This document shows positions 746 to 46,489 of a DNA stretch of 64,000 bases, piece after piece (position 1 is the stretch's first letter; the number at the start of each line of letters is the position of its first letter). This DNA is from a virus. The position numbers were made by a program, and so were the translations under genes. Under the pieces are notes generated by a model, which did not search any database, was not told the origin of the DNA, and saw only the letters and a list, made by a program, of their open reading frames with translations. The stretch lies in the IMG/VR virus record IMGVR_UViG_3300032103_000260, positions 87,224-151,223 of that record, one strand, 5' to 3'.

Positions 746-3700
746 TTAAGTATTATCCATTTTTAGTGGTTGTATTGATACAGTACTAAACAAATTATCC
801 ATACTATTTGCTACTGGTGGTGATGGATAATTTAAATTATCTGGTAATCCATTACTTTGTTTTGATAATTGTAAATTACTATTAGCTATAACACTATTAG
901 GTGTTCCAGCATATCCATTTTCAGTAGTTTCTTGTTGTGCTGCATCTGGTGAGGTTTGTTGATTAAAATTACCAGAAGTAAATGAGTTAGTTATAAATGG
1001 TACTGGTATTTTAGCTAATCTCATACCCTCAAATGAGGTGGTCATATGATTAGGTGTTATTTGATGATCAACTTTTAAAATAATATATGCCCCGTTGAAT
1101 AACGGAATATTTTCAATTTGAAAGTATTGCGTTGGTTGAATCATAGCATTACCTATACCAGATACTTTAGCAGTATATGATCTTTGCGAGTATACATTAA
1201 ATAAATTTTGGCCTTTAGGTATTGGTGATGCATTACCTTGATCATCAGCAATTGATGATAATATTGTTAATGATTCATTTGTTTCAGTAAGTTCTTTTTG
1301 ATCAAATTGTATATCAGTAAAAAATGATTGATTTTGCTGTCCAAATCTCACTCTAAATGCATTAACATTTGCATAGAATGGATCATCTGAATCATTAGAG
1401 TTAACAAAATCAGGTGGTAAATTATTTTCTAAATTTTTGATGCCAGTATCTGCTGTTTCACTTTTTTCATTATCTAATGATGATGATGTACCACCAATAT
1501 ACATTGCAATAAAGTATGGTTCTGTTGGTTGATCTAGTGTTTCACTTATTTTAAAAGCATCTTCCCATCTATATTTACTATTATCAAATACCATGAAATT
1601 TTCAACTGGAAAAAATTCAAATCCATTTTCAGATAGAATTCGACTCATTACTTGAAATACACTTAAATCAAAATCTTTTTCCATATCAATTAATGAATCA
1701 ATGTTAAGTTTAACTTTATTTCCAATATTGTTAAATGCTCTATCTACAAATTTAAAACTATTAAATAATGGCCTTCCTGTTAATGGGAAACCACCATTAA
1801 CATTACTTAATATATTTGTACCCTTCTTAATTGGTATATTTGGTGATGGTATCCATCTATCATAGATAGTCTTAAACGAGTAATACATTTGATTTTTTAT
1901 ATCATTATCATTTAATTTTCCAATAATTTCTTTATCTATATTATCTAATTCAGTACTTCTATCTGAAATAGAATCAATTAATTGTGAAAAAAATTGATTA
2001 AAATATGTTGTTGTTCTACTTAATGCAGTACCAGATAAATTACTAATTGGTACGAATGAATTAAAATCTTGTATTTTATTTCTTCTTTTAAAAGTAATAT
2101 CTGAAAAATTCAAAATGTATCTATTACCATTCATATATTTTATAAATTTTGATGATTCTAGTGCATCTCTATATTTTATTTCAGAATTATCATCTCCTTC
2201 AGGTATTTCGGTATTATTAATAACATTAATAATTGAATCAAGAACACTTTTATAATCTTCACCCTGACCATTAATCAAATTATTTGTATCAGCACCAACA
2301 AAAGAAATAAATTGACTAACAAATTTTTTAGCATCTTTTTTTGATAAGTACTTAATAAGTAATTGATCATTAATTAAATTATTTTTTGGATAAAAGTATG
2401 TTATACTAATACTAACAGTTTTAACTACTGGTAATTTTTTCAACAAATCACCAATCATATCCGAATAAAATGTTGAGCTTGGTCTATTTATATCATCATG
2501 GTATGCTAATGCTAATGCTCCCATATATAAATTAGCAAATTCTGGAACTTGTACTACAGAACCAACACTAAATTTACCAACTATTTCATTTTCAGTACTA
2601 AAAAAACTTCTTGTTCTACCTATATTGCTAACCATAAAAAATGCTTTTTGAAAAGCATTATATGTTGTGTCTGTCTCACTAAAAATAATTTTTAATGTTT
2701 CTGAATTATTGTTAATATAATCTGCCCATAGTTCAACAGTTGTATCACCTTCAATAAATTTAGAATCAAATGCGTTTTCTGTTTTAAAATCATCGGGAAA
2801 ATATATTAAATTTTCCTTACTAAATTTTTGAACATTAGGAGTACTTGATGTAAAAAAATTAGAAACCTTAGTCCATGTTTCGTTTTGATTTGTAATAAAT
2901 TGATCAATAATATCATCACTATTTTCTTGTACATTTCTTTCAGCTATTAAAACATTATTGTCAACATAATCAAATCCAATAAAATTATCATTATCTCTTG
3001 ATCTATAAAAAGATATTTCACTATTATCAAATTTTACAAAATCAGTAGTTCCATTTAATGATGAATAATAATTCACTCCATTTTTTGGGTTTGATATCCA
3101 TGATATAAACTCATTATATGATTTATGTGATAATGCACTATTTTTTAATAAACCTAATAATGTTTTATCTATAAATGTTTTAGCTAAATTTAATGCTTCT
3201 GATTTAGCAACTAATTTTACATAATTTTCATTTTGATTAAAAAAATCACTATTTGTAAACTGAGAAATAATATAATATCTATTTATAATTATATTATATA
3301 TTTCATTTAATTGATATGTTTTTTTTCTTTCTAATTGAAAGTATGGTGATTCATTTGAATATGATGTTTTTAATGTTGTGTCAACAGGGTTAATAGGAAA
3401 CCACAAATTATTACCCACAACATCAGTATTTTCTTTATTAGAATTAAATCTATCTAATTTAGATAATTCAATAGATGCATTAATAAATTCTTCAATAAAA
3501 TTAACTTCTGGAAATGGCTCGGCTAATTGTCTGAATTGCTGTACTTCAGTTGGATATGCTCTGTCTACTCTGTCATTAGATTCGTTACCTTCTGATGATC
3601 TAGTTGTGGTTAATTTATGGCACAATGGAAATGCGCCTATTGGAATGTTATCAACATTTTTAGAATTTGTATTTGTTATAATTTGTGATCTGTATTTTTC

Positions 3701-5185
3701 GTGATGAGTATCACTTTTACCCCCTACATCAATTAATTTACTAAAAAATCTGTCGCAATCATTTGCTAAAATTCTAAAAACATTATTTAATGTTGGTTTA
3801 AATCCTAATATTTTAATTGTTTTGTCGTTGACAAGTTTATCATAAATTTTTTTAGCTGTTTCATAATCCTTTAGTAATTTATTTTTTTCATTAAAAAGAG
3901 TTATGTAATACTTAGTAATGTCTATACCTATAAAACTTGTTGTATTTGTTTGTGTACCATTTATCGTTTTTTTATTAGGTACATTAGTAGTAAATGTGTT
4001 TAATATTAAACCCTTTCTTTCTGATGGTAACTGTTTAAATTCCTTAATATTATCAATTAATCTATTAGTTACAACTTCATCAAGTGTTGCTCTTTTAGCA
4101 GATAATTGACTTTCATCATCTACATTAACATTATTATTGCCATCAATAGTATCTTTATTAACTATTGCAAGTATTAACCTTTTTGTGGTATCACTTGAAA
4201 TATCATTTTCTCTTATGTATGAATTATACTCACTTGTATTATTGATTATTTCAATTTGATCTTGTTTGTCTTGAGATATTTCAGTATTATCAGAATTATA
4301 TATAATTATTCTTCTTAAACTACTAAATGTATCTGACGCAAATTGCAAAATAAAATCAATTGAATTTAAGGCGTTTTTTACTTTTTCAATTTTTAATTGT
4401 GCTTCTTTGGTTGTTTTTAACTCTTCAGATGTATTATTTAATTTAGTAATTTGAATATTTCTTTTTTTCAAATTTTGAATTAATTGATGTGTGTTTTGTG
4501 GTGGTTGTAAAGTACCTTCTATTTCAGTAAAATCAACAGTAATAGTACTATCTGTAAATGGAATAGTTTTAATATAATTAAACAATATATCTGTTAATGG
4601 TGAAAAGGTTCTTGAAGTAAATTTTGCTGATATGTAGTAATTACCACTAGTACCATCAAATCTAGTGTTTTGTTCAAGAAGATGAAGTGTATATGTTAAT
4701 TTTTTACCATAATAGCCTTTAACTGTTAAAATATAAATTGGAGGTGGAAAGTCATATAATACCGCATATGGTGAATTTGATCCTCTATTTAAAAAATTCA
4801 TACCTTTTATATCGACAAATTCAATATTTACTATAGGTACTGCACTTGGTGTAATTGCAATATTTATTGATTGTATACCAAATCCTTCATATCTGGTTTT
4901 ATCATCAGCTACATTATTTGTCCAATCAGTAGTATGGTATTTTTTAAATTTAGAACTATTAGATTGTTCAAAACCCAACATATTTATATTTACTGAAGTA
5001 GAATCAACATCTTGCTGTACACCATCTGCTGAAGCAATAATTATTGTTTTACCTCTTCTTGTTACTGTTAATTCAACAAATATTGACATCTTTTCATAAT
5101 CAGGCATTCCATTATAATCAGAACCAAATTTAGATACTGTATTAATTGGGTCAATTAAATTAACTTTCGATGTAGACATAAACAA
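746..5185 (-). CDS. Large baseplate hub / tail-associated structural protein (1479 aa; start probably ATG 5179)
   Basis: N-terminal GFGIQSINI...IEFVDIKG...LTVKGYYG and C-terminal RSYTAKVSGIGNAMIQPTQYFQI...GAYIILKVDHQI resemble contractile-tail hub (gp27/VgrG-like) folds; directly upstream of the SLT gene. Confidence 0.6.
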   Translation of the reverse strand: MFMSTSKVNLIDPINTVSKFGSDYNGMPDYEKMSIFVELTVTRRGKTIIIASADGVQQDVDSTSVNINMLGFEQSNSSKFKKYHTTDWTNNVADDKTRYEGFGIQSINIAITPSAVPIVNIEFVDIKGMNFLNRGSNSPYAVLYDFPPPIYILTVKGYYGKKLTYTLHLLEQNTRFDGTSGNYYISAKFTSRTFSPLTDILFNYIKTIPFTDSTITVDFTEIEGTLQPPQNTHQLIQNLKKRNIQITKLNNTSEELKTTKEAQLKIEKVKNALNSIDFILQFASDTFSSLRRIIIYNSDNTEISQDKQDQIEIINNTSEYNSYIRENDISSDTTKRLILAIVNKDTIDGNNNVNVDDESQLSAKRATLDEVVTNRLIDNIKEFKQLPSERKGLILNTFTTNVPNKKTINGTQTNTTSFIGIDITKYYITLFNEKNKLLKDYETAKKIYDKLVNDKTIKILGFKPTLNNVFRILANDCDRFFSKLIDVGGKSDTHHEKYRSQIITNTNSKNVDNIPIGAFPLCHKLTTTRSSEGNESNDRVDRAYPTEVQQFRQLAEPFPEVNFIEEFINASIELSKLDRFNSNKENTDVVGNNLWFPINPVDTTLKTSYSNESPYFQLERKKTYQLNEIYNIIINRYYIISQFTNSDFFNQNENYVKLVAKSEALNLAKTFIDKTLLGLLKNSALSHKSYNEFISWISNPKNGVNYYSSLNGTTDFVKFDNSEISFYRSRDNDNFIGFDYVDNNVLIAERNVQENSDDIIDQFITNQNETWTKVSNFFTSSTPNVQKFSKENLIYFPDDFKTENAFDSKFIEGDTTVELWADYINNNSETLKIIFSETDTTYNAFQKAFFMVSNIGRTRSFFSTENEIVGKFSVGSVVQVPEFANLYMGALALAYHDDINRPSSTFYSDMIGDLLKKLPVVKTVSISITYFYPKNNLINDQLLIKYLSKKDAKKFVSQFISFVGADTNNLINGQGEDYKSVLDSIINVINNTEIPEGDDNSEIKYRDALESSKFIKYMNGNRYILNFSDITFKRRNKIQDFNSFVPISNLSGTALSRTTTYFNQFFSQLIDSISDRSTELDNIDKEIIGKLNDNDIKNQMYYSFKTIYDRWIPSPNIPIKKGTNILSNVNGGFPLTGRPLFNSFKFVDRAFNNIGNKVKLNIDSLIDMEKDFDLSVFQVMSRILSENGFEFFPVENFMVFDNSKYRWEDAFKISETLDQPTEPYFIAMYIGGTSSSLDNEKSETADTGIKNLENNLPPDFVNSNDSDDPFYANVNAFRVRFGQQNQSFFTDIQFDQKELTETNESLTILSSIADDQGNASPIPKGQNLFNVYSQRSYTAKVSGIGNAMIQPTQYFQIENIPLFNGAYIILKVDHQITPNHMTTSFEGMRLAKIPVPFITNSFTSGNFNQQTSPDAAQQETTENGYAGTPNSVIANSNLQLSKQSNGLPDNLNYPSPPVANSMDNLFSTVSIQPLKMDNT

Positions 5186-6367: not shown

Positions 6368-8275
6368 ATGAAAGAAGTAGTAATTAATAATCATTCTATT
6401 AATCGTTTTAATGAAAAAATGATTCTTATTGAGCAAGATGCTGGTTATATCGATATAGGATTAAACCCAACACTTGTAACAGAATCCACAAAATTTAATA
6501 TTGACCCAAACAAACCAGTTATCATTAACTGTATTCTTCAAAAATGGGGGGTAAAGAATAAGAATGGTAGAATATATCCTAAAGATGTATTGATGCGTGA
6601 AGTTGACAACTATATAAAAAATATGGTTGAAAGTTCTTCTGCAATATCTGAAGCAGATCATCCTGATTGTGTAAGTTCTTCTGATTCAATGATTTATACA
6701 AAAAATGGATGGAAATATTTTGAAAATATTTCTGATGATGAAGAAATATATACATTAAATATACTATCCAATAAAATTGAATCTCAAAAAATTGAAAAAA
6801 AAATTTATCAACACTATAATGGATTAATGTATGAATTAAAATCTAAAAATTCTATTGATATCACTGTAACTCCAAATCATAGATTTCTATTAGAAGATAG
6901 TGATGGTATGCGTTTTTATTTAACTGCTCAAGAATTATTTGATGATGTTGGTGATGTTTATAGTAGTGGTAAATATAAATTGTTAAAAAAAGCTGAATGG
7001 ATTGGAGTAAATGATGAATGGTTTACACTTAAAGGATTACCAAGAGAATATTTTTCAAAAAAACATACTCATCTTTATTTAAAGAATAAAGATGATATTA
7101 AAATAAAATCTGAAGATTGGTATGCATTTATGGGTATTTATTTATCAGAAGGGCATTCATCTGGTGTTAAATTCAAAAATAAAAATTTAAGAGGTTACAA
7201 TATAACCATAACTCAAAGAAAAAAAGAAAATATTTTTCTTATTGAAGAATTACTAAATAAATTACCAATTAGATTTAAAAAAAGAATAAGAAAATCGGGC
7301 ACTGTAGATTTTTCAATTAATGATGCCAGATTATATGAATATCTTTACCCATTAGGGTCTTCTTCAGAAAAATATATTCCTAATGAAATAAAAAATGGAA
7401 CACCAGAATTATTATCAATTTTATTAAAATGGTTTCAAATTGGTGATGGTAGAAAAGTTCTAACAAATGATAATACCTATAAGGAATCCGTATTTTCCAC
7501 ATCAAAAAAACTAATATATGATTTACATGAAATTTTGATTAAATGTGGTAAATATGGTACAATTACTGAATATCACCCAAAAGATAGATATTTATTTGAT
7601 TTAATTAACGAAGAATCAATTGACTCTAATGGTGTGTTAATTATCACAAGTAAAAAAACAAAAAGATTAGTAAAATCAGAAAATAGTAAATCACTTTATA
7701 ATTTAAATTTTTCTAAAACTAATCATATTTGGATAGATAAAAGATCAATAAAAATAACACCAATCGAATATAATGGTATGATTTCTTGTGTTCGAGTACC
7801 AAACGGTAATTTTTATGTAATGAAAAATGGTAAAGCACATTGGACAGGTAACTCATCAGTTGTATCATTGGATAATGTATCACACTTGATTAGAAAAACT
7901 TGGTGGGGTACTGGTGAAAATCAAAATGTGTTATTTGGTGAATTGGAAATTATCACATCTCCAGCATACATGAGAAATGGTATTGTTTGTATGATTGGTG
8001 ATAAGATTGTTGAATATTTAAAAAGAGGTGTAAGATTAGGTATTTCAAGTAGGGGCGTTGGAACACTTAAACAGGTTAATGGTGAAAATGTTGTTCAAGA
8101 TGATTTTGAACTAATTTGCTTTGACTTAGTAGCATCACCAAGTACTCCCGGTGCATTTTTATTTCCAGAAATGGTAACCCCTGATAAAATGGGCGAGGGT
8201 ACAATAACTAAAAAAAATATCGTAACCGAACATGAAGAAGTGTTAAATGTATTAAATAAGTTTTTAATAAAATAA
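6368..8275 (+). CDS. Prohead core protease (T4 gp21-like) interrupted by an intein
   Basis: NKNGRIYP, EADHP, VSH, GISSRGVG, DLVASPS motifs; upstream of scaffold and capsid genes. Confidence 0.93.
   Translation: MKEVVINNHSINRFNEKMILIEQDAGYIDIGLNPTLVTESTKFNIDPNKPVIINCILQKWGVKNKNGRIYPKDVLMREVDNYIKNMVESSSAISEADHPDCVSSSDSMIYTKNGWKYFENISDDEEIYTLNILSNKIESQKIEKKIYQHYNGLMYELKSKNSIDITVTPNHRFLLEDSDGMRFYLTAQELFDDVGDVYSSGKYKLLKKAEWIGVNDEWFTLKGLPREYFSKKHTHLYLKNKDDIKIKSEDWYAFMGIYLSEGHSSGVKFKNKNLRGYNITITQRKKENIFLIEELLNKLPIRFKKRIRKSGTVDFSINDARLYEYLYPLGSSSEKYIPNEIKNGTPELLSILLKWFQIGDGRKVLTNDNTYKESVFSTSKKLIYDLHEILIKCGKYGTITEYHPKDRYLFDLINEESIDSNGVLIITSKKTKRLVKSENSKSLYNLNFSKTNHIWIDKRSIKITPIEYNGMISCVRVPNGNFYVMKNGKAHWTGNSSVVSLDNVSHLIRKTWWGTGENQNVLFGELEIITSPAYMRNGIVCMIGDKIVEYLKRGVRLGISSRGVGTLKQVNGENVVQDDFELICFDLVASPSTPGAFLFPEMVTPDKMGEGTITKKNIVTEHEEVLNVLNKFLIK
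6668..7852 (+). mobile_element. Intein (395 aa) with LAGLIDADG homing endonuclease
   Basis: HPD|CVSSSDSMIYTKNGWK start, ITVTPNHRF block B, FMGIYLSEG and LLKWFQIGDG LAGLIDADG motifs, VRVPNGNFYV...HWTGN|S end. Confidence 0.92.
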
Positions 8276-8289
8276 AAAATACTTCTTTT

Positions 8290-8322
8290 AAGTACCGTTT
8301 TTTATAAAAAACGGTACTTTTT
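8290..8322 (+). terminator. Intrinsic terminator hairpin after the protease
   Basis: aagtaccgttttt / aaaaacggtactt inverted repeat followed by T run. Confidence 0.7.
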
Positions 8323-8372
8323 AAAAATAAAACACTATTTATAATTAAGAAAAAACAAAAAGGCAATTTTCT

Positions 8373-9785
8373 ATGGGTAAAACAATATTAGAAGAAGCTG
8401 TTTTAGAAGTAAAACAAATCAAAGAAGCTGCTGAAAAAGCTGCTATGGAAAAATTGGCAAATGCCATGCCTAAAGAATTTGATAAATTCTTAAAAGAAGA
8501 ATTGAATAAATCCACAATTAAAGAGTCAACTAATGTTGGCAATAAAAAAGAATCACAAAAAATTAATGAGTCCTTTATGGATAGTACAAAAAAGCCAACC
8601 CTTGAAGAAAAATTGGCGGGTGAAGAAGAACCATGTTGTGATGATGAAGTATTGGATATGACTAATCTAAGTCTTGATGACGTAGAAGCTGCATATAACG
8701 ATGCTAGTTCTGATGATGAAATCGAAGTTGTAGGAGATTCTGATATGGAATCACAAGACGATGTTATCAATGACGACATGATGAAAGATATTGAAGAAGA
8801 ATTAACTCAAATGGATGATGCTTCTGAAGCAATGGTTAGTGATGATGTAGTTGTTGGTGACAATTCCAAAATGGAAAAGTCTAATACCTCTGATCCTTAT
8901 GAATTTATGAAAAAAATGCATGAAGAACTTAGCGGAGCCATTAAAGCAATTGAAGAAAAACTTTCTGTTGAGGGTTACCAAAACGAATTTGATGGTAAGA
9001 TGAGCGAAATGTATGGTGAAGAATTTAAAGAATCATTAGGTGAACAAAAATATAACGAGATGTTCGAAATGTATAAATCTAAGAAAATGGAAAAAGTTAA
9101 TAAAACTGAAATGGCCGAATCTGCACCTGTTGCTGATGAAAAAAAGGAAGAAGTATCAGAAGTGGTATCTCCTGAAGGTCATGAAGACGGTAAAGAAGTG
9201 GATGAAGCACACGGCATTTCACTTGCTAATAATAAGAAAGTTAGTGGTAATAAAACACCACGTTTAGATTATAAGAATTATGCGAAAAACAAAGTAAGAA
9301 GCGCAGTTCAAGAATCTAAAAAACTTACTTCTTTATTAGAAGAAAACAAGAAGCTAACTAAAAAACTTAACGAGAATAAGGCAAAAGCTAATCAGTTAAA
9401 TGATGTTGTTAATCAATATCGTACTGCTCTTGAGAAATATAGAAAGCAACTTACTGAAATGGCAGTGTTTAATAACAACTTGGCACATGTAAATAGTATT
9501 CTTTTGAGTGAAGAATTTACATTAACAAGTGGCGAAAAGAAAAATATCATCGATCAATTCAAAAAAGTATCTACTTTAGAAGAATCAGAAAAAAAATATA
9601 AAGAAGTAATTTCTGAGATTTCTAAGAAGAAAAGTGTGAATGAATCAATCGAAGACAAACTAACCGATTCAATCCAGCCTTCAAGTGCTAATGTTTTGGG
9701 TAATGTAGTTGAAAACACTGCATACGTAAATGAGCACGTGAATAAAATCAAGAAATTGATGGATTATGGTAGAAAAAAGAAATAA
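8373..9785 (+). CDS. Prohead scaffold protein (gp22-like)
   Basis: Acidic, coiled-coil protein between protease and capsid genes; many [ILV]-x-E sites typical of gp21-type protease substrates. Confidence 0.8.
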   Translation: MGKTILEEAVLEVKQIKEAAEKAAMEKLANAMPKEFDKFLKEELNKSTIKESTNVGNKKESQKINESFMDSTKKPTLEEKLAGEEEPCCDDEVLDMTNLSLDDVEAAYNDASSDDEIEVVGDSDMESQDDVINDDMMKDIEEELTQMDDASEAMVSDDVVVGDNSKMEKSNTSDPYEFMKKMHEELSGAIKAIEEKLSVEGYQNEFDGKMSEMYGEEFKESLGEQKYNEMFEMYKSKKMEKVNKTEMAESAPVADEKKEEVSEVVSPEGHEDGKEVDEAHGISLANNKKVSGNKTPRLDYKNYAKNKVRSAVQESKKLTSLLEENKKLTKKLNENKAKANQLNDVVNQYRTALEKYRKQLTEMAVFNNNLAHVNSILLSEEFTLTSGEKKNIIDQFKKVSTLEESEKKYKEVISEISKKKSVNESIEDKLTDSIQPSSANVLGNVVENTAYVNEHVNKIKKLMDYGRKKK

Positions 9786-9816
9786 TAATTATTAATAATT
9801 AAATCAAAAAATTAAA

Positions 9817-11472
9817 ATGGGATTTTTAATTGAAAGTGCAGAAGTTGGAAATATTGGTCTTAAGCAGTTAAGAGAGCAAAGAGAGATCACAACCAACAGA
9901 TGGGAAAAAATCGGACTTTTAGAAGGTCTTGAAGGTAACGTAAAAGAAAACTGTGCTCAGTTATTCGAGAATCAGTTGTCATATATGATTAATGAATCTA
10001 CAGATTCAGCATCATCTGGACAATTTGAAACTGTTGCGTTTCCAGTTATCAGACGTGTATTTGCTAAATTATTAGCAAATGACATCGTATCGGTTCAGGC
10101 ATTGAACTTGCCAATCGGTAAATTATATTACATTAATCCTAAGATTTCTGTAAGAACTAATACTAATGCTCATACTTCACCTGATGGTGCATATAGCAAT
10201 GCTGCTACTTTAGCCGCATCTGCAAGAACTCAGTTTGAACAAAGATCATTGTATGATGCATTCTATGCAACAGAATATGGCGATGAAGGTACTTCATTGT
10301 TTGATAGAAGCAAAGGTCGTTTTACTCAGGTTTCAGATGCAGCAACTCCAACTGGTTTTACTGTTGGTGATAGAATTGCTACAATTATTGTAGATGGTTT
10401 CACAACCACTTCACAAGGTAAACTTATCGGCCCTGCTGGTGTTCCTATGGATACCGAATCATTCTTGGCTTCATTGAGAGTAACTTCAAGTGTTGCTTGG
10501 AATGCTCCATCACCATTTGCTGATGCATCAATTGCAATCGGTGAGTCTATTCCTTATAGTGTAAAAGTACAAAAGTACGGACAAGCTATCGTAAATGAGG
10601 CTGGACAATTAGTATTGAATCTTGACTTATCATATGCTGGTCAAGATGGTTATAAAGCATTGACTGCATCATCTGTAGGTACATTTACTGCTACCTATAG
10701 AGTGTATTCTGATCTTGAAGAAGATTCAGAAATGGCAGAAGTTACTTTCGGATTGGACGAAGTTACAGTATCTGTTGAAACTCGTAAAATGAGATCACAA
10801 TGGACTCCTGAACTTGCTCAAGACGTAAGTGCATTCCATAACATTGACGCTGAAGCTGAATTGACAGCATTGTTGTCAGAGCAGATGGCTGCAGAAATTG
10901 ACCGTGAAATCCTTAGAGATTTGCGTAGAGGTGCAGCTTGGAACTTGCGTTGGGATTACAACGGATTGCGTAAGCAAACTAACGTTTATCATGGTACTCA
11001 AAAAGACTGGAATCAGACCTTGATGACCAAGATTAACCAAATCTCTGCTCAAATTCATAAGTCAACTTTAAGAGGTGGTGCTACTTGGGTAGTTGTATCT
11101 CCTGAAGTATCTGCAGTATTGGACGATTTAGAGTACTTCCACGTATCTAACGCTGCTCCAGAGCAAGATAAGTATAACATGGGTATCGAAAAAATTGGTG
11201 TGTTGCAAAACCGTTACCAAGTATATCGTGATCCTTATGCACCAGCAAACACAGTGTTGATTGGTCACAAAGGTTCATCAATCTTGGAAGCCGGCTACAT
11301 CTATGCTCCATACGTACCAATGCAGTTAACTCCTGTAATGTACAATCCATTTGACTTCAAGCCTATTCGTGGTATCATGACTCGTTACGCTAAGAAGATG
11401 ATCTTAAACCGTTACTACGGTAAGATTTTAGTGGATGGTCTTGAGGTATTCGGTATCGGTGACTTAATGTAA
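9817..11472 (+). CDS. Major capsid protein (T4 gp23-like)
   Basis: PVIRRVFAKLLANDIVSVQ, RKMRSQWTPELAQD, HNIDAEAEL, AEIDREIL, YAPYVP, GIMTRYA motifs. Confidence 0.97.
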   Translation: MGFLIESAEVGNIGLKQLREQREITTNRWEKIGLLEGLEGNVKENCAQLFENQLSYMINESTDSASSGQFETVAFPVIRRVFAKLLANDIVSVQALNLPIGKLYYINPKISVRTNTNAHTSPDGAYSNAATLAASARTQFEQRSLYDAFYATEYGDEGTSLFDRSKGRFTQVSDAATPTGFTVGDRIATIIVDGFTTTSQGKLIGPAGVPMDTESFLASLRVTSSVAWNAPSPFADASIAIGESIPYSVKVQKYGQAIVNEAGQLVLNLDLSYAGQDGYKALTASSVGTFTATYRVYSDLEEDSEMAEVTFGLDEVTVSVETRKMRSQWTPELAQDVSAFHNIDAEAELTALLSEQMAAEIDREILRDLRRGAAWNLRWDYNGLRKQTNVYHGTQKDWNQTLMTKINQISAQIHKSTLRGGATWVVVSPEVSAVLDDLEYFHVSNAAPEQDKYNMGIEKIGVLQNRYQVYRDPYAPANTVLIGHKGSSILEAGYIYAPYVPMQLTPVMYNPFDFKPIRGIMTRYAKKMILNRYYGKILVDGLEVFGIGDLM

Positions 11473-11494
11473 TCGATTAGCTTATTAAAATAAT

Positions 11495-11524
11495 AAAGGG
11501 TTGCAGAAATGTAACCCTTTTTTT
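11495..11524 (+). terminator. Intrinsic terminator after the major capsid gene
   Basis: aaagggttgca-gaaa-tgtaacccttt followed by T tract. Confidence 0.85.
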
Positions 11525-11571
11525 AGATTTGTATCTACATAACCATATATAGACCATAACATGACTCAATT

Positions 11572-13074
11572 ATGATAGCTCATCAATATATAATCAGAAA
11601 AAATAAAAGTAAAGAAGAAAAATTAGAATTTGATCATAATAAATTAGATTTAAGTAATACATCAATTAGATTAATAGCTAAATCATTAGCTAAAAAAATA
11701 ATTGTTGAGTATGAATGGTTAAAATCAATGCCATTAATAACCAGATATTGTTTAGGAATTTATTTTAGAATAGATAATGACGAACATTTGGGTGGAGTAT
11801 TAGTATTATCTGACGATTATGCTGATAATACTGGTGTATGGGAAAAATATGGTTTTGATGATAAAATAATTTTATTATCTAGAGGTGTATGTTTATGGTG
11901 GACACCAAAAAACACAGCATCCTATTTCATTTCAAAAGCCTATAAATGGCTAAAAAATAATACTAAATATAGAATTATAACTGCAACAGTAGACCCTGCT
12001 GCTGGTGAAATTGGAACTATTTATCAATCACTAAATTGGTATTATGTTGGTTTAATGTCTGGAAATTATAATGATAATAAAGAAACGAAAAGATTTTCAG
12101 TATTAATTGATGGCAAATTACGTTATTCTAGATCGATCAGAAAGGAATTTGGTACTATGAAAAAGGGTGTTATTTTACAAAAATATCCAAACGCTAAATT
12201 TATTAGTCAATATAGAAAAAGAAGATATTTTTATTTTTTTGATAGTAAATCGAACAATAAAAAATATTATAATAATATCAAACATATTATTCATCCATAC
12301 CCTAAAAGAGATCAACCGCCAATTATTGGTTTTATTTATAAAATAACTAATTTAATAAATAATAAAACGTATATTGGTCAAACAACAAGACCATTTAAGG
12401 ACAGAATTAAAGATTACAAAAGAGGTATATGTAATTCATATTTATTAAGTGCATTTAATAAATATGGATTTGCAAATTTTGAATTTAAAATAATTGATAG
12501 AGCATCAACTATTAATGAATTAAATAATAAAGAAATTTATTGGATAAATTACTATGATTCAACTAATAAAAATATTGGCTATAATATTGAATTAGGTGGT
12601 AATAATTCAATACCTACAAATGATACATTAATTAAAATGTCTAAATCACACATAGGAATTAAACAAACACATAATTGGATAAATAAAAGAATAGCCAAAT
12701 CAGGTAGTGATGATGCAAAAAAATATGGTAAACAAAAAACTGAAGAAGAAAAAAGACTTTTATCTAAAAACTCACCTAAATTTTGGTTAGGTAAACAGAG
12801 AGACAATCAAACTAAAGAAAGGATACGAAAAACTAAATTAGAAAAGGGATTTTCAGATAAACAAAAGGAAATAATATGTAAAAAAGTTATTGCTTTTAAT
12901 CCAATCAATAATGACATTATTAATAAATTTGATTCAACGATAGAGGCTGCTAAATTCTATTCACTATCACAATCAACAATTAGTAGAAGATGTTCAGGTA
13001 AATATAGTAATTCCGGTAATATATTTTTCAAATATGAAAAACCTACAAAAGCTAATAAAAGTCATTCAAAATAA
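11572..13074 (+). CDS. Mom-like GNAT DNA-modification domain fused to a GIY-YIG homing endonuclease with NUMOD3/NUMOD1 modules
   Basis: N-terminal LSRGVC...PKNTASYFIS...ATVDPAAGEIGTIYQSLNWYYVG...KRRYFYF...YPK; then FIYKITNLINNKTYIGQT...GYNI; C-terminal FDSTIEAAKFY...ISRRC. Confidence 0.8.
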   Translation: MIAHQYIIRKNKSKEEKLEFDHNKLDLSNTSIRLIAKSLAKKIIVEYEWLKSMPLITRYCLGIYFRIDNDEHLGGVLVLSDDYADNTGVWEKYGFDDKIILLSRGVCLWWTPKNTASYFISKAYKWLKNNTKYRIITATVDPAAGEIGTIYQSLNWYYVGLMSGNYNDNKETKRFSVLIDGKLRYSRSIRKEFGTMKKGVILQKYPNAKFISQYRKRRYFYFFDSKSNNKKYYNNIKHIIHPYPKRDQPPIIGFIYKITNLINNKTYIGQTTRPFKDRIKDYKRGICNSYLLSAFNKYGFANFEFKIIDRASTINELNNKEIYWINYYDSTNKNIGYNIELGGNNSIPTNDTLIKMSKSHIGIKQTHNWINKRIAKSGSDDAKKYGKQKTEEEKRLLSKNSPKFWLGKQRDNQTKERIRKTKLEKGFSDKQKEIICKKVIAFNPINNDIINKFDSTIEAAKFYSLSQSTISRRCSGKYSNSGNIFFKYEKPTKANKSHSK

Positions 13075-13398
13075 CTTATATGATGACCTTCTAAAACCCC
13101 AATTCAGGGGTAAGTCAGAAAATCGATTTTACTAACATTGTTACGTAGCTACTGAATGCCTATATCATCTACTCCCCAAGAGATAAAGTCTTCCTATAAG
13201 CCAAATACGTTAAAAATTAATGGCATTACACACTGGTTCTTGAAGAACAAAGAAACTGGAAAAATAATAGATATCACCAGAAAACAATTTACTCATAAGA
13301 TTGAGTATTCTAACTCAAGAGGTTGTGGTTTCTTAGTTAAGAAACCTAGTAAAAGAACAAGAATACTTATATGTAGAGTATTATACATTAATAAATAG
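13034..13398 (+). pseudogene. Degraded YunG/transglutaminase-like gene (one nonsense lesion and one frameshift)
   Basis: MKNLQKLIKVIQNNLYDDLLKPQF...FY*(TAA 13133)HCYVATECLYHLLP, then a frameshift into the ORF-track frame ...THWFLKNKETGKIIDITRKQF (Cys/His/Asp triad pattern). Confidence 0.6.
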
Positions 13399-13428
13399 TA
13401 TTTATTAATGAGATTATTAATATAACTA

Positions 13429-13785
13429 ATGAATAGAAATAATAGTGGTTTTAGTTTTGGTTCTATAATGATATGGTTCGGGCTTTTCTTTTTAGTGACC
13501 TTGCCATTAATGTTAATAGTGGTTAATCATGATCATATCGATGTAAGTATAAAAACTGGAGATAACACAGTTAAAGAATTACAAATTGAAAGAGAAGATT
13601 TGCTTAGAGGTCGTGAAGTAGAAAAGGATAGTATATTTAAACTACATAAAATTTTAAACAAAAAAGATAGTACAATAGTAATACTAGAATATAAACTAAA
13701 AAAACAAAATAAAAAAAATGATTCACTTAATAGTATGATAAAAACTATGCAAATGACTGGAAGTTTAAAAAAATTTATTAAATAA
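13429..13785 (+). CDS. Membrane-anchored coiled-coil protein (inner-membrane spanin-like candidate)
   Basis: N-terminal TM segment, coiled-coil remainder, late-type motif at 13398. Confidence 0.4.
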   Translation: MNRNNSGFSFGSIMIWFGLFFLVTLPLMLIVVNHDHIDVSIKTGDNTVKELQIEREDLLRGREVEKDSIFKLHKILNKKDSTIVILEYKLKKQNKKNDSLNSMIKTMQMTGSLKKFIK

Positions 13786-13925
13786 TTAAATGAAGATTAT
13801 TGATAAAACTTGGAAGGCAAGTAAGAGATGTCTTTTAAATGCCAACTTTCTAAAGAAAAATGTTATAACATCAACAAAAAAAAATAATAATCATTGGTTA
13901 CAAAACATAATAAAAACAGAGTAAT

Positions 13926-14438
13926 TTATTCACTAATCTCTATTTCAGTTTCAGATATACCTTTAATCTGATCATTAATTTGTTTATCCCATTCATTAAT
14001 TGTATCAGCAAACTTATATAAGTTGCTTTGTATTTCTAATCTTTCAATATAATTATTATATACTGTATATATTAAATTAGGAATATCTAATCGATCAATA
14101 GTTACTACAACTACTTTATTAGGAAAAATATCTTCAAATGAGATATTTTCAATATCACCTATATCAATCAATTTTGATTCTTTAATAGGATCAGGTAATA
14201 AAAGATATGATTCCATATATAATTTATTCCAAAAAAAATTTTTCTTTTTTTCAACAATAAATTGTAATAAAATAAATTGTTCACCTCTTTTTTTTATTAC
14301 TTTTATTCTTTCGTCTTTTATACCGTTAATAAAAAAATTTCTTATCATTTTAGAATTAGAATTTAAGATTTCATTTATTTTTAATTGTTCTGTACTAATC
14401 TTCATCACCATTATCTTCGTTAGTCCATTCATAATCAT
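13926..14438 (-). CDS. Hypothetical protein
   Basis: ORF co-oriented with the helicase gene; true start probably further downstream. Confidence 0.5.
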   Translation of the reverse strand: MIMNGLTKIMVMKISTEQLKINEILNSNSKMIRNFFINGIKDERIKVIKKRGEQFILLQFIVEKKKNFFWNKLYMESYLLLPDPIKESKLIDIGDIENISFEDIFPNKVVVVTIDRLDIPNLIYTVYNNYIERLEIQSNLYKFADTINEWDKQINDQIKGISETEIEISE

Positions 14439-15987
14439 ATATTAATTCATTTTTTGCACGTGTCATGGCAACATATATAAGATTTTTTTCTTGTTCTGCC
14501 ATCCATGCTTTTGCAACTCTCATTGGTAATTGGTCTGGTCTTATAATAAAGACTCTTTCAGATTCCAATCCTTTTGCCTTATGAATAGTACTTAAAACAA
14601 TACCACTAATATTGTCGGTAAAAACTGATTCAATTTTTTTTCTTAATTGATCAATATTTTCAACTTGTTTTGCCATAAATTTCAATACTTCCACCTTATC
14701 ATGTAGATTAGAATATGCGCCATACTCATGAAATTTAGTTACACCTTTCTTTCTAAGAACAGATTGCATTTGCATTAGCTCATTATATAATCCAGCACTC
14801 ATTGTTGATAAACTTTTATATTTTTTTATCATGTCTAATAATGATATACCAATATCACTACCTTTTATTGTAACTTTTTTACCTTCAGCAAGAAGTTCAA
14901 AAAATAAAACAACTAATGGTGCGGTTGTTCTGCATAAAATAAAATCACCATCTTGAGCATCATATATACTACCCTTTGTGACTATACCATCAGGTGCATT
15001 TTCTCTTGGCATAATATCTGGAACCAATTGTTGGGCATGTTCCACAATTTTTTTAGCACAACGAAATGTAGTTGTTAATGGTAACACTTTAGGTTCATTA
15101 AATTTTCTAAACCATGCAAATGATTTATGGTCTGATCCAGCAAACGAATAAATACTTTGTTTTTCATCGCCAACAACAATTGTTCTACCAACAAACTTAT
15201 TAAACATATCTCGCTTAACAAGTCTTCTAATTAACTCTTGTTGCGCTCTAGACATATCTTGAGCTTCATCAACAAAAATATAATCAAATTGTTGAACCCA
15301 AATAGATTTATCTACTGCAGGTAAAAATATCATGTCAACAAAATCAAATGTTGTTCTATCTTCCATTGCAGCATCTAATACAGATAATACTCTATTAATA
15401 TCTGTGGTATCAGAATAAACAATATCATACTTTTCAGCAATATATTCAACATATTTTTTGTCAAATGTCATTGTTAATCTACAAAGATCAACCATTTTAC
15501 GAATACTAGATTTATAATCTGGAATTTGATCAACCGTAAAATCTTTTTCAAGACCCCATGTTCTTGATTTTTTATCAATAATTTTACTTATTTTAAATTC
15601 ATCCATGTTTATTTTATCTCCATACTTTCTTTTTAATGCCATCATACCTAAACCGTGTGAAGTATAGCATTTAACATCTTCAGGCAATTTTTGAGTTAAT
15701 TCTTCTTTGATATGTCTATTGAATGCAAGGAATATTTTGGTTTTATCTTTAGGTAATAATTTAGCTACATGAATTATAGTTGTAGTTTTAGATGCACCTG
15801 CTCTTGCCTCAATAAGTAAATTATCCTTTGTATTAACTGCAGCTTCAAAAATTATTTCTTGTTCTTTTGTTGCAGGATAAGGAAAAACAGGTAATTCTTC
15901 TGGTACTACGTCTTCTTTAGTTTCTACAAATTTTTTCATTTTATTACTTTTACGCTTCATTCTTTGAACTTTCTTCATCTTTTTCAA
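14395..15987 (-). CDS. SF1 UvrD/Rep-like helicase (start probably 15939)
   Basis: ARAGASKTT Walker A variant, AFN, VDEAQD, VGDEKQSIYSF, TFRC, STIHKAKGLE, YVAMTRA. Confidence 0.92.
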   Translation of the reverse strand: MKKMKKVQRMKRKSNKMKKFVETKEDVVPEELPVFPYPATKEQEIIFEAAVNTKDNLLIEARAGASKTTTIIHVAKLLPKDKTKIFLAFNRHIKEELTQKLPEDVKCYTSHGLGMMALKRKYGDKINMDEFKISKIIDKKSRTWGLEKDFTVDQIPDYKSSIRKMVDLCRLTMTFDKKYVEYIAEKYDIVYSDTTDINRVLSVLDAAMEDRTTFDFVDMIFLPAVDKSIWVQQFDYIFVDEAQDMSRAQQELIRRLVKRDMFNKFVGRTIVVGDEKQSIYSFAGSDHKSFAWFRKFNEPKVLPLTTTFRCAKKIVEHAQQLVPDIMPRENAPDGIVTKGSIYDAQDGDFILCRTTAPLVVLFFELLAEGKKVTIKGSDIGISLLDMIKKYKSLSTMSAGLYNELMQMQSVLRKKGVTKFHEYGAYSNLHDKVEVLKFMAKQVENIDQLRKKIESVFTDNISGIVLSTIHKAKGLESERVFIIRPDQLPMRVAKAWMAEQEKNLIYVAMTRAKNELIYDYEWTNEDNGDED

Positions 15988-16474: not shown

Positions 16475-16509
16475 TTTAAAGTATTTATATAAAATTCAAA
16501 TATAATAAA

Positions 16510-25577: not shown

Positions 25578-25603
25578 ATAGACATATTTTTATATAAATA
25601 CTG

Positions 25604-30171: not shown

Positions 30172-30305
30172 GTTTATAACAATTTATAAATACTTAAGCC
30201 TATTATTTCTTGTTTTTGAGAAATAAGGAAGTATTTATAAAAAAAATCTACAGTAATGTAAATGTAAATTTAATAGAATAATTTAAAAAAATCAAATAAA
30301 TAAAG

Positions 30306-33032: not shown

Positions 33033-33061
33033 AAAAAACCTGTGTCTCCACAGGTTTTTTT
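33033..33061. terminator. Bidirectional terminator
   Basis: aaaaaacctgtg-tctc-cacaggtttttt. Confidence 0.85.
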
Positions 33062-34823
33062 ATTTTAAAACCATTTCATACTTTAAATTGCCACAATCAT
33101 AGATTCTTAAATATCCTCTTTCAAGCATTATTTCATGCTCTGTTTTATTATTATCAAAACCATGTTTTAATAATATTCTTTTTCTAAAATTAAATCTATG
33201 CTGACGTATCTTATCCTTTTTATTAAAATACCAATAATTGGGTTCAATAACATATTTGAACTCAAATCCTAATTCTTGATATAAATTACCTGTTGAATAT
33301 CTTCTATCTGCAAATGTTGATATTACTTTAGGATTATATTTCTTTATAAAATATTTGAGTAATTTTGATGCTCCCCCAATTACTATTGTATCTAATTTAT
33401 TAGCAAATCTGACTAATTCATATTCATCAATATATTTATTTTTTTTCTTTTTTCGTTTTTCTTTACTAAATGTCATTATAGACACCAAATTATTATCATA
33501 GAAAAGTCCTATTCTAATAGATGAGTTAATATATCCTTGTAAATGATTTTCATTTAAAAATTTTTCAGACATTTCTGATGTAATTTCTTTTATTTCACAT
33601 TTTCTTGCATAAATTTTATTTCCAATAATACCAAGTTTTGCTTTTAGTAGGCTCTTAGTTATTTCTTGTTTATATAACCATTCATCTTCAAAAATATGAT
33701 ATAATTTTATTCCATTTGAAGCCATGTAATCTGTTTTTTCTACATGATAATTATTATTTAAAAATAATTCACTATGCCAATATATTCCATTATATTCGAT
33801 ACCTATTTTTAATTCATCAATATAAATATCAATCTCTTTTTTACCTATTCTTTTTTTCTCAGATTTAAATCCTAATGAATCAATATAGCGTTTTAATTCG
33901 TTTTCTTTGATAGAATCATTGTAATTAATAGGATTACAATGAATACAAGGATTTTTTATTCCATGTACCAATACACGATAATAGAATAATGTATTATTTA
34001 TCATGTATTCAGTGTGATAAATACACTGATTTTTAATTATTAATGTATTTCTACTGTGCTCAATATCAACATGATCACCAAGTATTTCTTTATATCTTTC
34101 AGTTGTTTTTTTTGTTCTTGATTTTACATTTTTTTTTATTACTGAATCAAGCATCATCACAGAAGGTACACCATATTTTTTTAAATTAGACTCTCTCATT
34201 TTAATTTTTACAGAATCTAATTTAGATGGTATTTCAACACCGTATTTTTTTATATTATTTTCTTTTATTCTATTTCTAATTATTTGTGATTGAGTTGGAT
34301 GTTCTACACCGTATTTTTTTTCTAAAGTGTTTCTGGTTTTTTGTTTTACAAAATTGGATTGAAATATATTTTTATGACCATATTTATTTAGATATGTTTC
34401 ATTTTTTTTATCTTTTACACTTTGTAATTTACTTACTGATAAAACACCATATTTCTTAAGATTAGTTGATTTTATATTTTCTAATCTAGAAACACTTTTA
34501 TTTCTACAAATCTTACTACAATTTTTGCCATATCCTTCACTAAAAACACCTCTCCATTTTATTACTGCACCACAAGTTTCACATTTTGGTATATGTTTAA
34601 TATCATATAAATAATTATATAATTTTTGTGTAAAAGATATTGATGCATCAAATTCGAAATCCATATTATGTTGCTCAATCCTATCAATTAATCCATTAAA
34701 GATTTGATCTAAATGATTTTTTTTAGTTTTATACCCTGATTTATTATCTGTTAGCAAATATTCAATAATTTTTTCTTTTTCCATATGTAGAGTATTTATA
34801 TAAAAATAATAATATTTAATCAT
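33060..34823 (-). CDS. Hef-like homing endonuclease: Zn ribbon, KYG repeats, Vsr/DUF559-like nuclease, C-terminal GNAT (Mom-like) domain (start probably 34784)
   Basis: CETC..CSKIC; five KYG repeats; EIDIY...GIEYNGIYWHS...HIFEDEW; FLNENHLQG, ELVRFAN, GGASKLLKYF, FADRRYSTGNLYQELGF. Confidence 0.8.
   Translation of the reverse strand: MIKYYYFYINTLHMEKEKIIEYLLTDNKSGYKTKKNHLDQIFNGLIDRIEQHNMDFEFDASISFTQKLYNYLYDIKHIPKCETCGAVIKWRGVFSEGYGKNCSKICRNKSVSRLENIKSTNLKKYGVLSVSKLQSVKDKKNETYLNKYGHKNIFQSNFVKQKTRNTLEKKYGVEHPTQSQIIRNRIKENNIKKYGVEIPSKLDSVKIKMRESNLKKYGVPSVMMLDSVIKKNVKSRTKKTTERYKEILGDHVDIEHSRNTLIIKNQCIYHTEYMINNTLFYYRVLVHGIKNPCIHCNPINYNDSIKENELKRYIDSLGFKSEKKRIGKKEIDIYIDELKIGIEYNGIYWHSELFLNNNYHVEKTDYMASNGIKLYHIFEDEWLYKQEITKSLLKAKLGIIGNKIYARKCEIKEITSEMSEKFLNENHLQGYINSSIRIGLFYDNNLVSIMTFSKEKRKKKKNKYIDEYELVRFANKLDTIVIGGASKLLKYFIKKYNPKVISTFADRRYSTGNLYQELGFEFKYVIEPNYWYFNKKDKIRQHRFNFRKRILLKHGFDNNKTEHEIMLERGYLRIYDCGNLKYEMVLK
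34140..34465 (-). repeat. Five tandem ~23-aa (69-nt) KYG repeats within the endonuclease
   Basis: NLKKYGVLS / YLNKYGHKN / LEKKYGVEH / NIKKYGVEI / NLKKYGVPS at 23-residue spacing. Confidence 0.85.
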
Positions 34824-46451: not shown

Positions 46452-46489
46452 ATTTTAAAGGTATTTATTAGAAGTAATATACTAATACT

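Follow-up and report, generated by a model that had tools for sequence, protein, structure and literature searches.

We analysed a window of 64,000 nucleotides (nt), covering positions 87,224 to 151,223 of the IMG/VR virus record IMGVR_UViG_3300032103_000260, which is the genome of a large uncultured T4-like phage. Directly downstream of its capsid gene lies an open reading frame (ORF) at 11572-13074 on the plus strand. This ORF is open throughout and encodes a single intact protein of 500 amino acids (aa). Judged from its sequence, it seems rather likely to be a free-standing mobile homing endonuclease of the I-TevI/Seg type with an N-terminal Mom-family GNAT domain, a GIY-YIG counterpart of the Hef-like “nuclease + Mom” genes.

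The N-terminal half (aa 1-248; 11572-12315, plus strand) matches the Pfam family Mom (PF25680) at aa 31-245 and profile positions 3-202 of 202, with an E-value of 6.5e-23 and 81.9 bits against a cut-off of 27.1. Mu Mom was also matched by hhalign and by BLASTP, the latter aligning residues 119-241 of Mu Mom with aa 112-245 of the fusion. As this alignment reaches the last residues of Mu Mom (PYPK), an entire mom frame has been joined to an entire GIY-YIG gene, with a link of about 8 residues. The AlphaFold model, obtained from 57 relatives, has a predicted local distance difference test (pLDDT) score of 81. Its best match among solved structures in Foldseek is the Mu Mom crystal structure 8bv8 (chains A and B), with an E-value of 2e-9 and a template modelling (TM) score of 0.64-0.69, and its helices 186-193 and 198-204 fall in the region aligned to the helical insertion of Mu Mom. 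A Mom-type GNAT domain had been proposed here in an earlier, sequence-only reading of this DNA, and both the family match and the structure prediction bear it out.

The GIY-YIG catalytic domain follows at aa 253-345 (12328-12606, plus strand). Pfam GIY-YIG (PF01541) matches aa 253-331 with 26.2 bits (cut-off 22.6), and the NCBIfam model TIGR01453, “group I intron endonuclease”, covers aa 253-477 with 87.8 bits (cut-off 56). In phmmer the domain matches I-TevI (1ln0/1mk0), with Y255, Y267, E321 and N338 aligned to I-TevI Y6, Y17, E75 and N90. These four residues, together with R273 and R278, are conserved across relatives. The I-TevI catalytic domain is also the next-ranked structural match after 8bv8 (TM 0.76 to 1mk0). 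Both models are above their cut-offs, the catalytic residues are kept and the fold is matched; the domain looks intact, as had been noted. In PHROGs, the 500-aa protein matches PHROG 1384, “Mom-like DNA modification protein” (E 1.4e-26), and PHROG 314, “homing endonuclease”. No REase-like (restriction endonuclease-like) match was found in aa 1-500, where the nuclease is of the GIY-YIG type and lies C-terminal to the Mom domain, and Pfam reports no methyltransferase domain in the protein.

The remainder, up to and including the stop codon, is a putative C-terminal DNA-binding tail (12607-13074, plus strand) with helical NUMOD3-like repeats and a terminal helix-turn-helix (HTH), QSTISRRC; TIGR01453 extends into it as far as aa 477. 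The NUMOD3 and NUMOD1 modules that had been named in this region are confirmed only in part. Neither is reported by Pfam at E<=1 in the 500-aa protein, whose tail gives only HTH_psq (E 0.15), while close relatives have PF07460 and PF07453 (NUMOD) matches in the equivalent region. The terminal QSTISR helix is conserved. Overall, the tail is the least conserved part of the protein, with a mean identity of relatives to the query of 46%, compared to 69% for the Mom part and 62% for the nuclease.

A survey of the fusion, which the sequence-only reading had suggested, finds it well beyond this genome. Proteins with both Pfam domains form more than 100 metagenome clusters, which show 47-70% full-length identity and lie on contigs as long as 340 kb; after clustering at 50%, only about 6 representatives are full-length fusions. 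An assembly artefact is ruled out by these clusters, which come from independent metagenomes and carry both domains in full-length proteins. In its own genome record the fusion is present as a single copy. No cultured phage with the fused form was found in a collection of 50,697 genomes, nor any record covering at least 80% of the protein, and the nearest cultured relative of the capsid protein is only about 41% identical. The Mom subfamily of the fusion is common as stand-alone phage genes. Elsewhere it is fused to N6/N4 DNA methylases, a REase_MTES_1575-like domain or a serine resolvase/invertase (P0271, P0294, P0269, P0259, P0368). Our literature search found no paper linking Mom with GIY-YIG; in a 2026 Mom paper, the model comes from sequences of Mom alone and fusions are not discussed.

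The slot behind the capsid gene and an associated base

The major capsid protein gene, of the gp23 type, is located at 9817-11472 on the plus strand (PF07068 Gp23, E 2.9e-77; 78-88% protein identity to relatives). It is followed by an intrinsic terminator found in the terminator scan, a hairpin with a T-run (11495-11526, plus strand; hairpin 11495-11520), which agrees with the position behind the capsid terminator described earlier for the fusion gene. The hairpin is conserved in both empty and filled loci. The left edge of the cassette comes directly after it, with element-specific bases beginning at about 11528.

For the comparison of this slot, 80 IMG/VR loci were fetched by the capsid protein alone (75-88% identity), and the interval from gp23 to a UvrD-like helicase gene was scanned with domain hidden Markov models. 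The slot is empty in 27 loci, while 19 contain Mom::GIY-YIG, 18 contain GNAT2::GIY-YIG, 9 have a nuclease alone or another GIY-YIG gene, and 5 have a GNAT domain alone or other content; these counts include a few loci found through the fusion protein. A Hef-like gene is another filling of the slot. On the capsid gene DNA tree, occupancy changes 36 times, against a mean of 36.4 for shuffled labels, and is therefore random. The nearest relative (L010, 85% DNA identity in gp23) has an empty slot, where the terminator is directly followed by homologues of the window genes beyond 13429. Such sporadic filling, without pattern on the capsid gene tree, is what one expects of a free-standing homing endonuclease, and the gene reads as a mobile homing endonuclease gene in a hot spot, not as a core gene. 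The selfish mobile element of the sequence-only reading is upheld by this pattern. An intron-encoded origin was considered and rejected, given that there is no Rfam match in 9000-15000 and that gp23 is uninterrupted and collinear with its relatives.

The GNAT2 form has the same nuclease and tail with a second, Hef-type Mom-like domain at the N-terminal. GNAT2 is otherwise the C-terminal domain of “Hef-like homing endonucleases”. A profile-profile comparison between the Mom domain and GNAT2 was not significant; their kinship is based on the structure match (the GNAT2 model, with pLDDT 91, has Mu Mom as its best structural match), on one family member passing Pfam Mom and on weak matches. On the nuclease-plus-tail tree, the type of N-terminal domain switches at least 7 times, and monophyly of the Mom-fused forms is rejected by an approximately unbiased (AU) test (p 0.0023). 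The window nuclease groups with those of L006, where a separate GNAT2 gene abuts the nuclease gene, and L024, which is GNAT2-fused, and the capsid genes group likewise. From these switches and groupings, the partners appear to have been swapped while the layout of Mom-like domain, nuclease and tail was retained. A further search of viral contigs that started from stand-alone nucleases yielded mostly contigs already known.

We then compared every gp23 column and the 70 nt downstream with slot occupancy. A single outstanding site was found, the silent third base of gp23 codon 492 (position 11292), with p 4.6e-11 (Fisher p 1e-11 versus empty loci), whereas the best of 40 label shuffles reached 1.5e-4. 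In the window this base is C (GAA GCC GGC), and it falls in a candidate homing target or immunity region at 11256-11328 on the plus strand, about 235 nt from the insertion point. C is present in 30 of the 32 loci with a GNAT/Mom domain fused to or abutting GIY-YIG. On the contrary, T or A is found in most empty loci (20/22) and in all 7 nuclease-only loci, whose enzymes keep all catalytic residues and the same terminal helix. When extra loci were added, C occurred in 31/31 standard-tail GNAT/Mom fusions and in 0/10 intact nuclease-only loci. Both fused exceptions without C carry an alternative long tail, and two of the three independent long-tail loci have no C.

The association persists among phylogenetically independent pairs, with 16-17 of 19 in agreement and none in disagreement (sign test p 1.5e-5). 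Sites from 11310 to the gp23 stop codon show no association, so mere linkage is not sufficient and selection must hold the allele. We infer that codon 492 would lie in the homing target with C as the immunity allele, and that this allele goes with the GNAT/Mom domain and standard tail rather than with the nuclease alone.

Two loci show other arrangements. In L039 (8770-11969), tandem Mom::GIY-YIG genes are found behind one capsid gene, the first product having 485 aa with the standard tail and the other 584 aa with the alternative long tail. In L093, a T4-like contig of 134 kb, a stand-alone Mom gene lies behind gp23 and is flanked by IS605-type TnpB (OrfB/Cas12f-like) genes at 3513-4736 and 7168-8343. 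The ORF adjoining this Mom gene was considered as a GIY-YIG gene and rejected; its HNH match is insignificant.

Possible roles of the Mom domain

In a mixed infection, the C-terminal tail would bind the DNA of an element-free phage within the conserved 3' portion of its capsid gene, the GIY-YIG domain would break this DNA, and repair from the donor genome would place a copy of the cassette in the slot that follows the gp23 terminator. Since the codon-492 allele tracks the GNAT/Mom domain with the standard tail and not the nuclease alone, the Mom-like domain probably engages the adenine at this site. Tethered to the nuclease, it would probably flip or aminoacylate the adenine of C-A/T-G at codon 492 during the attack on the target, and a role in shielding the phage's own DNA is less likely. 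The A and T alleles read C-A-G on one strand, which is the SAS context of Mu Mom, while in the C allele (ACCGG) neither strand offers an adenine.

As for the chemistry, Mom moves glycine from Gly-tRNA(Gly) onto the N6 of adenine in double-stranded DNA, at SAS motifs (PMC13219725), and the account of its chemistry needs updating accordingly. The two tRNA arrays that were read yielded no tRNA-Gly, a result that is not informative on the donor supply. Tentatively, homing might proceed by marking and then cutting, with the Mom-like domain flipping and aminoacylating the codon-492 adenine and in this way positioning or licensing the GIY-YIG cut. If this were true, a DNA-modifying domain would set part of the specificity of a nuclease and carriers would be immune by lacking the adenine. 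Such a mechanism would also account for the Mom-like tail found in Hef-like homing endonucleases, which are widespread.

Several points weigh against a homing enzyme with a working Mom domain aimed at codon 492. The target site is placed by a single associated base, and the match to SAS has a chance expectation of about 1 in 7. The nuclease-only loci number about 8-10 and may have shifted specificity; a base specific to them was looked for in 5 loci, which give little power, and nothing clean was found. The escape is always to C and never to G, which also fits one ancestral allele spread with the element by co-conversion. Finally, the important residues of Mu Mom are kept only in part. In the 241-residue numbering of Mu Mom, R111, S124 and R151 are essential, and H58, Y59, D149, Y159, W48, W181 and the helical insertion are important (PMC7261163, PMC13219725). 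In the profile alignment, the essential R151 as well as H58 and Y59 correspond to A143, E48 and W49 of the fusion, and W48 and W181 are also not conserved. With these differences, the donor or product may differ from that of Mu, or the activity may be reduced.

The other aligned residues are retained, with Mu Mom R111, S124, D149 and Y159 corresponding to R104, S117, D141 and Y151, which are invariant across the relatives checked (24 to 120 in different sets). Moreover, differences of the A143/E48/W49 type are common to stand-alone Moms 45-55% identical to the Mom domain of the fusion, so the loss of the R151, H58 and Y59 equivalents reads as a subfamily trait, not as decay. The domain is complete and probably catalytically active. 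It is very unlikely, in our opinion, that the frame is a product of frameshifted assembly, or that it holds a dead Mom remnant serving at most as an extra DNA-binding lobe. The three unconserved Mu residues would agree with such decay, as would the split or truncated versions of fused genes (L006, L077). However, more than 100 independent full-length clusters have the fusion, four residues are invariant, the non-Mu residues recur in stand-alone Moms, and the model is a confident one with a Mom-like fold.

A different possibility, which the sequence-only reading had also offered, is that Mom is a cargo. Here the domain would be a genome-wide anti-restriction enzyme joined to the nuclease by loss of a stop codon; the nuclease would spread Mom, the benefit of Mom would sustain the gene, and the two activities would be independent. 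Such a history is compatible with two complete genes lying end to end, with the Mom domain being the best-conserved part of the protein, and with the frequent occurrence of its subfamily as stand-alone phage genes, one of them behind gp23 in L093. Nevertheless, we find it doubtful. The allele at codon 492 goes with the GNAT/Mom domain and with the tail type, not with the nuclease, which points to a local, tethered action and fits poorly with a pure cargo. In addition, two unrelated-looking Mom-like domains were repeatedly swapped onto the same nuclease with the layout kept, and a tether to a site-specific tail should hinder modification across the genome.

The first proposal of the sequence-only reading was a single-chain restriction-modification (R-M) enzyme similar to type IIC, in which the Mom domain modifies and shields the phage's own adenines and the nuclease destroys unmodified DNA of the host or of competitors. 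As stated, this is not supported, given that carriers are without the adenine at codon 492. The change from A:T to C:G in carriers leaves no adenine to modify, and a site already guarded by modification would have no need of it; the phage appears to protect itself there by genetic rather than epigenetic means. Both domains do look catalytically competent, Mom-like domains are repeatedly paired with nucleases of two distinct folds, and one relative (P0078) retains Mom and NUMOD modules without the nuclease. An R-M-like logic has also been predicted in the literature for REase-Mom fusions (Iyer et al. 2021, PMC7824862). Still, in a mixed infection the enzyme would modify competitor DNA too, and a nuclease coupled to an I-TevI-type tail that reads a long site is ill suited to general restriction. 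For these reasons, we consider R-M logic unlikely.

The locus is a compact, well-populated natural experiment: at one slot, the same nuclease occurs by itself, behind a true Mom domain or behind a Mom-like domain of the Hef type. One capsid-gene base tracks only the fused forms, so whether the Mom part protects, marks or rides along can be addressed at a defined site. Nuclease-Mom fusions are common in large phages. The tRNA-dependent DNA-modifying GNATs would be extended to site-tethered enzymes, which could serve as programmable adenine modifiers.

Neighbouring features

The cassette leader occupies 11524-11571 on the plus strand. It is conserved and promoter- or operator-like (TAGATTTG ... 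ATG), and a TAnnTTTG...GCATAAAcACATA block is found upstream of Mom-fused, GNAT2-fused and stand-alone forms. The TAnnTTTG motif is not enriched across the window, and for this reason we do not claim a promoter for the leader. Many start codons in the window have an (A)GTATTTATA motif at most 30 nt upstream, for example at 16480-16509, 25578-25600, 30172-30200 and 46460-46489. Shine-Dalgarno sequences are mostly absent in the window, and (A)GTATTTATA is a possible phage promoter or leader element.

Downstream of the fusion gene, a small ORF at 13156-13398 (plus strand) encodes an 80-aa N-terminally truncated YunG-like protein that has lost the GHCYVATEALYHLL motif, as seen in phmmer matches and in the alignment. 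In 13 related loci the full-length form (about 120 aa) immediately precedes the GNAT2::GIY-YIG gene, with a slight overlap between the two. The small ORF is absent from the nearest empty relative, L010, and is probably the relic of an earlier cassette.

Inteins are frequent in the neighbour genes of this phage clade. The prohead protease has Intein_splicing or LAGLIDADG matches, and the UvrD-like helicase is enlarged from about 495 to 800-1200 aa, its helicase match being broken into two or three pieces. Loci of the intein type are L003 (1-743), L006 (6251-9655) and the UvrD genes of L013, L024, L028, L032, L044, L049, L056, L061, L077, L078 and L081. In the phage's own genome, upstream of the window, ARAGORN reports a tRNA with a four-base anticodon (acgg) at L091 13820-13892, within an array of 20 tRNA genes.

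Comparison with known systems

The resemblance of the fusion to type IIC/IIG R-M enzymes is an analogy only. Unlike these enzymes, it has no methyltransferase domain, and its carriers lack the adenine instead of relying on modification.

Mu Mom (PDB 8bv8) is an enzyme for Gly-tRNA-dependent carbamoylmethyl modification of adenine at N6. The fusion is in the same Pfam family, shares the GNAT fold including its additional helical insertion, and has equivalents of R111, S124, D149 and Y159. It differs in having only 21% identity and in not keeping R151, H58, Y59, W48 and W181. Moreover, Mu Mom is free, loosely specific (SAS) and Com-controlled, whereas the Mom domain of the fusion is tethered to a nuclease and a site-reading tail.

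With I-TevI and the free-standing Seg enzymes of T4, the fusion shares the fold and catalytic residues of the GIY-YIG domain and a site beside a conserved late gene; its tail, with putative NUMOD-like helices and an HTH at the end, is of a similar kind. Among these enzymes, SegG cuts about 300 bp from its own gene, and segD adjoins gene 23. In terms of mobility, the fusion is sporadic beside a conserved gene and has the carrier-linked C allele at 11292. The differences are that the PF01541 and TIGR01453 models cover only its nuclease and tail and that its gene is not intron-encoded.

Lastly, the Hef-like homing endonucleases include annotated examples with a C-terminal Mom-like GNAT, namely Acj9 Hef-like, Dickeya F-LimVIII and Campylobacter Hef85. 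The window has a gene of this type at 33060-34823 on the minus strand, with a product of 587 aa composed of DUF7487, a weak Vsr/REase-like (REase_MTES_1575) match and a Mom-like GNAT. PF25680 matches it at aa 410-546 with 32.1 bits (cut-off 27.1), PHROG 3339 matches with an E-value of 5e-134, and tblastn gives matches to annotated Hef-like and F-LimVIII genes. A REase/Vsr-like nuclease N-terminal to the Mom-like domain is present in this ORF and absent from the fusion at 11572. In its SFADRR motif, this ORF keeps the counterpart of Mu Mom's essential R151, an arginine that is missing from the fusion.

Both the fusion and the Hef-like proteins unite in one polypeptide a part that reads DNA, a nuclease of the homing type and a GNAT of the Mom superfamily, and both are encoded by sporadic mobile genes of large T4-like and jumbo phages. 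They differ in the nuclease, which is GIY-YIG (I-TevI-like) in the fusion and REase/Vsr-like in the Hef-like proteins, and in the position of the Mom domain, N-terminal in the former and C-terminal in the latter. In addition, the Mom domain of the fusion is of the bona fide Mom subfamily of Pfam, for which Hef-type domains give low scores or none. Mom fused to REase-fold endoDNases in jumbo phages was described by Iyer et al. 2021 (PMC7824862), who proposed an R-M-like reading without mention of GIY-YIG. Nuclease-Mom fusions with REase-fold nucleases are therefore already published, and what is new here is the GIY-YIG version together with the codon-492 base.

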